Shown here: positions 22,495-63,703 of the stretch, piece by piece
How positions within the stretch are numbered: the first letter of the stretch is position 1
Layout of the letters: every line of letters begins with the position of its first letter
Origin: Catajapyx aquilonaris
Taxonomy: Eukaryota
NCBI GenBank assembly: GCA_000934665.2
Contig: KZ538042.1
Span: forward strand, 1-64,000
Direction of reading: 5' to 3'
DNA: 64,000 nt
Position numbers and translations under genes: made by a program
Notes under the pieces: model-generated
What the model was told of the DNA's origin: nothing
The model's database searches: none
The model's input: the letters and a program-made list of their open reading frames with translations, nothing else

Positions 22495-22535
22495 AAATGT
22501 ATTGTTTGGTGTAGTGAAATACACGTGTTCGTTGT

Positions 22536-22607
22536 TTCTAATATTATGTCTCTCTCTTGCAGGTAAGTGTTGTCGACTGTGCATGACGCTGCGCTGGGGT
22601 GGTGAGT
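22536..22607 (+). other. Putative recursive splice site (ratchet point) 1 with 39-nt cryptic exon
   Basis: TTCTAAT branch-like motif, TCTCTCTCTTGCAG|GTAAGT at 22562/22563, second donor GTG|GTGAGT at 22602. Confidence 0.65.
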
Positions 22608-51433: not shown

Positions 51434-51719
51434 CTAGAAAAACCCTCGCTTCGCTCGCATTTTTCTAGGCCTGCAGCGTACGGTGGTGGAGGCCATGAAT
51501 CGCTTTGGCCGTCGAACACGTCCTGATGTGCCAATACGAAACTGTTTACTTCCTGTCAACAACTTGACAGTTGTGCCCAACCACCAGAGGCGCTGCCGCC
51601 ACCCCACTGCGCATGCGTAGAACGCGGGCCAATAGGAAGCGTCGCGGCAACAATACGCGGCGGACTAATCAGAACGCTTATATACAAACATGCCCACTAC
51701 GATTTTAATATATATATGA
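51434..51719 (-). mobile_element. Non-autonomous Helitron, family G, full copy
   Basis: Minus strand A|TCATATATATATTAAAATCG ... CGAGCGAAGCGAGGGTTTTTCTAG|T, with a 3' stem and no TSD. Confidence 0.8.
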
Positions 51720-51746: not shown

Positions 51747-51814
51747 TACTAACATACTTTTCTCTACTTGCAGGTGAGTGTTGGCTGCGTTGACACACGC
51801 TGCTAGTGGTGAGT
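51747..51814 (+). other. Putative recursive splice site (ratchet point) 2 with 35-nt cryptic exon
   Basis: Perfect TACTAAC branch point (51747-51753), CTTTTCTCTACTTGCAG|GTGAGT at 51773/51774, second donor GTG|GTGAGT at 51809. Confidence 0.7.
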
Positions 51815-62297: not shown

Positions 62298-62860
62298 TCT
62301 TAGCAGTCGTTACTAACTTAGTAACGGCTACTAACTGAAGAGATCTTAGTAACAGCAACTAAGTGAAATGAGATTCTTAGTAACAGCTACTAAATGAAAA
62401 GAGATCTTAGTAACAGCTCCTAAATGAAAAGAGATCTTAGTAACAGCTACTAAGTGAAATGAGACAGTTACAGCTCCTAAATGAAAAGAGATCTTAGTAA
62501 CAGCTACTAAGTGAGATGAGATTCTTAGTAACAGCTACTAACTGAAAGGATTATATTCTTAGCAACAGCTACTAAGTGAAATGAGACATTCTTAGTAACA
62601 GATCCTAACTGAAAAGAGAGCTTAGTAACAGCTAACTGAAATGAGATTCTTAGTAACAGCTACTAACTGAAAGGATTATATTCTTAGCAACAGCTACTAA
62701 CTGAAGAACTTGACAGCAGCTACTAACAGAAAAGAGATCTTAGTAACAGCCACGAGTAAGTGAAAGGAGATATTCTTAGCAACACTAACTAACTGAAAAG
62801 AGATATCTTAGTAGCCGCTAATAACTGAGAGGAGAGCTTCTTAGCATTATATACTAACAG
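62298..62860. repeat. ~30-bp minisatellite (GAGATCTTAGTAACAGCTACTAAGTGAAAT-like)
   Basis: About 18 degenerate tandem units. Confidence 0.9.
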
Positions 62861-63703
62861 GAGCAAAGCCAAGCCTGCGTTTAGTTACTGCACTACTAAC
62901 TGATGAGTATAAATCAGAAAAGATACGCCCACTTTATAAAACTGCTATGCAAAATCCTTTCGAGTTTCAGAAGTGATTATTATTTCGCGACGTCTCGCGT
63001 TTTTAAAAATTGTTTTGGGCTGAAGGCTCAAGTAGGAAAAATGGCGGCAGTTTCTTTCTGAAGAGCTGATTCGATTTAAAGTTTTTGGCAAAAACCGGAG
63101 GGGGCTTGAGAGAAGAAGAAAGAATCGGTTTAATTTTGAGAAGGTGCGTATAATAGTGGGGGTTTGATGGTGGAAAATCTGCAAAAGGCAAAATTCGTCA
63201 TTGGCCGGGAAAGTTAACGGGCCGTTTTATGATTAGTCTCGAGGGAATGATACTTTTCGGGGCAGGGGAACATTAATGATCATTCGCGTAAATTTTGCGC
63301 CTGGTTTTCGCCCGGTTCTCTGGCTCGGAAAAGTGAGAGGAGGAGTGTGGGTACTCTCACTGGAGAGGCAGAGAGAGGGGGGGGGGAGGGGGGCGTAAAA
63401 TGAAATAGTCAAATAGGCCCACCTGCAATTTGGGGATATATGGACTCCTTCCTGCCTGATAACCATTCTGGGCTTCCTATTGCCGCACATTATGTACTCC
63501 ACGGCCTGCCTCTATTCGCAGCGATAAAACCCAGTAATGTCGGATTTTACATGTTTTCCGGTGAGTCACCCCCCGCAATGTAAAGCGAGCATAAAGCACG
63601 GGGCTGCCAATGACACGAAATAAGTGGAAGTGGTCCGCCAGTACGGTGAAGTAGCAGTTAGTTTATGAGAGGACTAGCAGAGGAGCCCGTTCTTCACACT
63701 GTT

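Follow-up and report, generated by a model that had tools for sequence, protein, structure and literature searches.

Ratchet points are well described in flies, and the Drosophila examples with cryptic RS-exons (kuz RP1/RP2, Bx, Ubx-RP and luna) are the closest parallels to the locus reported here. As presented in the relevant parts of PMC8605326, 10.1101/006163 and PMC6110457, these sites share with it an acceptor fused to a donor, a strong pyrimidine tract, TT at -6/-5, a branch point at -22, a short exon, out of frame, at whose end lies a second donor, and an arrangement of multiple sites on a single strand at intervals of tens of kb. The TT at -5/-6 is present in 196 of 197 fly ratchet points, and fly branch points range from -36 to -21 (10.1101/006163). 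The Ubx micro-exons m1 and m2, as outlined in PMC8605326, are a second likeness: several short exons within one long intron, with a donor at the start and a conserved interior. Mammalian RS-exons in long neuronal introns follow an exon-definition model and bring premature stops if included (Sibley 2015 as cited in PMC8605326); these are rare, with nine suppressed sites, and the account given there describes no paralogous sets. Finally, the 'sister' stwintrons of Hypoxylon (PMC9024468) present a stepwise-splicing signal as sequence-similar copies in one genome.

Here we describe a candidate recursive splice site of this known kind at position 51773 of the window (the whole stretch analysed, 64,000 nt), with which contig C116 (178,253 nt) of a 285.6-Mb genome begins. 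In contrast to the Drosophila ratchet points, the host is a non-dipteran arthropod. Its Hox homeodomains assign the genome to the arthropods: for the ftz-like one the top named hits come from a tick, a bristletail and a pseudoscorpion, and the Ubx-like one has a tail of QAQA and poly-alanine, a feature of hexapods. The site is well formed and probably functional. In the reading that we prefer, and in which we have reasonable confidence, it would be a ratchet point whose cryptic exon is skipped, in a very long plus-strand intron, and one of about five paralogues that stem from an old duplication.

The cassette at 51747-51814 (Table 1) bears out the order of signals given in a preliminary description of this DNA: TACTAAC (51747-51753) ends 20 nt before the junction, no earlier AG occurs in 51754-51773, and a pyrimidine tract, CAG/GTGAGT at 51773/4 and a second GTGAGT at 51809 follow. 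The site has the sequence features of the ratchet-point class: its predicted branch A at -22 falls within the fly range, and a downstream donor closes a short non-coding exon. This exon had been called frameshifting; its length of 35 nt stands, but it does more than shift the frame, as it holds one stop per frame (TGA at 51775-77, TGA at 51791-93 and TAG at 51804-06), and the frameshift matters only if the host intron lies in a coding region. In length and stops it matches the fly cryptic RS-exons treated in PMC8605326. It is not a coding RS micro-exon of the Ubx m1/m2 type, which in the same treatment are 51 nt long, in frame and translated, whereas the cassettes here are of mixed length and the focal exon of 35 nt has stops in all frames. 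The three-frame stops were missed in the preliminary description, as were the identity of the two donor hexamers and the kinship with 22562 and with cassettes outside the window.

Both donors of the focal cassette being GTGAGT, some inclusion of the exon is possible. By hexamer the second donor is as strong as the first, whereas the ratchet donors of the fly sites covered in PMC8605326 are usually the stronger, and donor competition is the weak point of the ratchet reading at 51773. As RNA, the cassette folds no better than shuffled sequences (z +0.69); two hairpins, one inside the exon and one spanning the second donor, were both rejected, since shuffles fold as well (combined p for the donor hairpin 0.20). 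The Hypoxylon stwintrons of PMC9024468 are short nested fungal introns over many genes and have internal symmetry, whereas here an exon-like cassette is clustered in one region, with no significant folding. Among the fly sites listed in the site table of PMC6110457, AGGTGAGTGTT occurs in one and AGGTAAGTGTT in none, counts that say nothing on orthology.

Table 1. Positions of the focal cassette, its relatives and the neighbouring repeat (window coordinates unless a contig is named; a slash marks a splice junction)
Feature	Position	Strand	Description	Basis
Helitron-like repeat	51434-51719	-	non-autonomous; 5' TC, 3' CTAG, between A and T; bystander outside the cassette	sequence, BLAST
Branch-point consensus	51747-51753	+	TACTAAC; predicted branch A 51752 (-22)	sequence; function inferred
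Pyrimidine tract and 3' splice site	51754-51773	+	ends TTGCAG; TT at -6/-5	sequence
Ratchet-point donor	51774-51779	+	GTGAGT, fused to acceptor	sequence
Predicted cryptic RS-exon	51774-51808	+	35 nt; stop codon in each frame	sequence
Second (RS-exon) donor	51809-51814	+	GTG/GTGAGT; context common to all five cassettes	sequence
Sibling S1	22533-22607	+	branch-like CTAAT 22538-42; AG ending 22562; 39-nt exon 22563-22601; second donor 22602-22607	sequence, profile
Sibling S3	C116 116118-116162 (exon)	+	AG ending 116117; 45-nt exon	sequence, profile
Fourth cassette	C116 140953-141031	+	acceptor at 140985 reads AA, not AG	BLAST
Fifth cassette	C4599			exon-interior likeness, profile
Partial sixth	C758 63556	+	matches 5' half	35 bits

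The splice signals, their non-randomness and the likeness of the copies are established directly. The four cassettes of C116 all lie on the plus strand, as do, among them, its three strongest sites (22562, 51773 and 116117); four of four on one strand would occur by chance alone once in eight. Their spacing is 29.2, 64.3 and 24.9 kb, so that steps of 25-64 kb compare with a mean of 18 kb for the fly sites described in PMC8605326, 10.1101/006163 and PMC6110457, and the 64.3-kb step just exceeds the longest fly recursive segment, 63.6 kb (10.1101/006163). From -34 to the second donor, the cassettes are identical in 72-86% of aligned columns, and a leave-one-out profile gives the held-out cassettes 35.5-56.1 bits, the highest score among 53 other sites being 14.0-16.2. 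The ranking of exon-interior likeness covered 33 exons of 57 sites, with second donors assigned by eye. In it, the three pairs among 22562, 51773 and 116117 rank 5, 16 and 26 of 528 and the pairs with the C4599 site rank 1, 3 and 21; only the first three ranks are selection-free, because these three sites were picked by location, and 140985 and C4599 by likeness. The relationship includes the exon interior, which in the fly cryptic exons discussed in PMC8605326 is poorly conserved.

The alike region spans about 75-85 nt, from branch point to second donor, and in five flank windows beyond the cassette edges likeness is at background (p 0.2-0.7). So sharp a fall at the edges fits an old duplication plus selection on splicing, and convergence or decay is less likely; likeness and edges together point to an old duplication of the cassette. 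The ratchet donor is GTAAGT in S1, S3 and the C4599 copy, as against GTGAGT at 51774. One sibling having AA for AG, copies can evidently persist without an intact acceptor; that fourth cassette may be either a dead site or one with an AAG acceptor one base later. The preliminary description had considered that the motif might belong to a high-copy repeat inserted in random orientation, and this is not what we find: the focal cassette has one BLAST match genome-wide, itself, and of the five copies, whose flanks are unrelated, four share one contig and strand. Four genome-wide pattern searches returned no further full member of the family.

From these data we infer transcription, an intron, every splicing step, and duplication as the cause of the likeness. 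Under the fly model set out in PMC8605326, the 35-nt exon would be defined across its ends, the branch point and acceptor marking its upstream edge and the second donor its downstream edge. Joining of an upstream exon to 51774 would recreate a donor at the junction, and use of that donor in the next step would remove the 35 nt with the next intron segment, so that they would be absent from the mRNA; any inclusion would introduce a stop or a frameshift, should the intron lie in coding sequence. An ancestral cassette may have been duplicated long ago, with just about 75-85 nt staying alike afterwards. We offer, as a doubtful extension that may well prove wrong, the proposal that in this lineage ratchet points increase in number by duplication while an intron lengthens. 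One 80-nt cassette would have given rise to four to six siblings that partition one intron exceeding 180 kb; selection for a common regulatory signal would have preserved the resemblance of their interiors, and one sibling would have been retired by loss of its AG.

The very long plus-strand intron around the cassettes is itself postulated from the sequence, and the searches for its gene were as follows. A codon scan of C116 revealed no coding exons, just low-complexity stretches; the scan gave true short exons scores of 18-26, so small exons could escape it. None of 119 candidate plus-strand exons matched Pfam (119 of 120 candidates were run, the remaining one being too short), no homeobox was found on C116, and Rfam gave no matches in 144 of its 178 kb. 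Searches with both ends of the contig returned matches to repeats alone, with no host gene, and neither C4599 nor C758 overlaps its ends. As the host gene was not found on C116, the contig could be intergenic. Intron 2 of muscleblind, prompted as a host by YGCY-like words, was rejected, since its flanking exons lie on two other contigs, about 21 kb apart. C149:1-304 and C1423:1-306 overlap by 308 nt at 97%; this joins the muscleblind-like exons and sets the intron between them at about 21 kb, short of the 40-700 kb given for insects in PMC3315501.

Several other explanations of the cassettes were weighed. The one that survives best, although we judge it unlikely, is that they are expressed sibling micro-exons (5' UTR or NMD-coupled poison exons) that some cells include by using the second donor, in the manner of Ubx m1/m2 or of the RS-exons of heph and mub; recursive skipping would then be only one outcome. 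Such a role would suit the second donor, which reads GTG/GTGAGT in all five copies and has the same hexamer as the ratchet donor in two of the five, and it would suit S1 (39 nt) and S3 (45 nt), whose lengths are divisible by three and which share an open frame. It agrees less well with the focal exon, closed in all frames, and shared ancestry by itself could account for the likeness. The five exon lengths (39, 35, 45, 40 and 29 nt) break frame and the encoded peptides are unlike, which argues against a coding array.

It is improbable, in our view, that the copies became alike by convergence on the motifs of one gene-specific regulator rather than by descent. The short words held in common (TGTT ahead of the branch point, TGAC, GCTG and TAGTG) could be binding sites, and flanking homology of the sort that would support duplication was not found; however, the likeness is collinear over 75-85 nt, arbitrary positions included. 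A second related pair elsewhere in the genome, C258:93959 (-) and C4585:11878 (+), moreover has 37 of 41 nt in common over a stretch that starts ahead of the branch point and runs into the donor, and the sequence shared is a different one. Relatedness is not a general property of neighbouring sites: of three further pairs that share a contig, none stands out for likeness (ranks 129, 158 and 460 of 1770), so a rule that same-contig sites are paralogous is not supported.

Similarly improbable is that the copies, no longer spliced, are leftovers either of some mobile element of low copy number or of an exon duplicated long ago. The loss of AG in one copy, the failure of the C116 searches to reveal a host gene and the repeat-rich nature of the contig, 23% of which is covered by repeat hits, would all be in keeping with this. 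Against it, the resemblance covers the splice signals and the enclosed exon and goes no further, flanking sequence on both sides being at background, a pattern expected from selection on splicing but not from decay; four of the five copies keep all four splice signals at the level of identity given above, and two of the genome-wide patterns revealed no scattered family. An arrangement of the motifs by chance can be dismissed, for although the window's motifs had been picked by eye, the layout occurs 0 times in 6.4 Mb of DNA (both strands) simulated with a third-order Markov model of the contig, versus two occurrences in the window and three across all 178 kb of the contig, and sequence relatives share it.

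A class of ratchet-point-like sites is real in this genome. The pattern of branch point, tract and YAG/GTRAGT has 56 genome matches, compared with 14 for the reversed pattern; the expected number of GTRAGT sites, derived from 1008 matches ending in GTY and two hexamers, is 15.75 (P 3e-15). The second-donor count covers 55 of these 56 sites: a GTRAG at +30 to +75 is present at 19 of them, versus 2.8 expected from their flanks (P 1e-11), and 36 have none. The focal site is absent from the 56 because an A interrupts its tract, and not every hit is a ratchet point: one of the 36 is a repeat copy, and ordinary exons of tandem genes, as on C925, can begin with GTGAGG. Both pattern sites on C258 lie upstream of sugar-transporter exons on the same strand, an arrangement that fits a transcript shared with those exons without proving one. 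The ratchet-point reading already advanced in the preliminary description is consistent with the anatomy, with this genome-wide excess, with the excess of downstream second donors and with the finding that the cassette is no high-copy repeat; use of the site in splicing, which defines the class, is predicted.

Taken singly, the site at 51773 is an ordinary candidate for a mechanism known from flies, here in a non-dipteran arthropod; what is new is the sibling relationship of the cassettes, and what raises the site above the ordinary is its place in a small paralogous set with one damaged copy. A literature search, with most subscription papers outside its reach, found no report of paralogous or duplicated ratchet-point cassettes. 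The likeness of about five copies, four of them on one strand of a 178-kb stretch, hints that ratchet signals can multiply by duplication, a point that bears on why only some long introns have ratchet points, a question stated as open in 10.1101/006163. Such a set with a damaged copy would form a natural series for the origin of sites, for selection on the exon and for the loss of sites. Duplication with intron growth, if true, would let the birth and death of recursive splice sites be read from the sequence, and interiors kept by selection, if true, would mean that the interiors of 'cryptic' RS-exons can carry information.

Upstream of the focal cassette lies a repeat on the minus strand (Table 1), whose 5' end is 28 nt before TACTAAC and which leaves the cassette uncovered. 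Non-autonomous Helitrons are defined by a 5' TC, a 3' CTAG, insertion between A and T, and dispersal. The focal copy reads A/TC...CTAG/T; among the other copies viewed, the 5' TC is present in 4 of 5 and the 3' CTAG in 2 of 3, and the repeat has at least 54 matches genome-wide, on both strands, with 40 of 1177 candidates scored. The claim in the preliminary description that a Helitron copy ends about 28 nt upstream without disruption therefore stands as to position and non-disruption, and the termini fit the Helitron label.

Some further features were noted. Within the 64-kb gap between cassettes, C116:78979 (+) has an acceptor with a branch-like GCTAAC, its AG being followed by a weak GTGAAA and, 47 nt further along, by GTAAGC; it could be an unrelated weaker site. 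The partial member on C758 has a 71-nt exon whose terminal donor itself follows a tract and AG, giving fused sites at 63556 and 63627 (+), 71 nt apart; no coding stretch was found on that contig. At C925:8706-31101 (-), five tandem paralogous exons start with GTGAGG after a normal acceptor and are a source of false ratchet-point calls. In S1 (ATG at 22583-22585) and S3, an ATG lies within TGCATGAC and begins a frame that runs uninterrupted, in the same phase in both, as far as the second donor, a feature that the other three copies lack; TGCATG is the Rbfox motif. The window holds 13 copies of TACTAAC, all on the plus strand and none on the minus, 8 of which fall in a tandem repeat of about 30 nt at 62317-62900.
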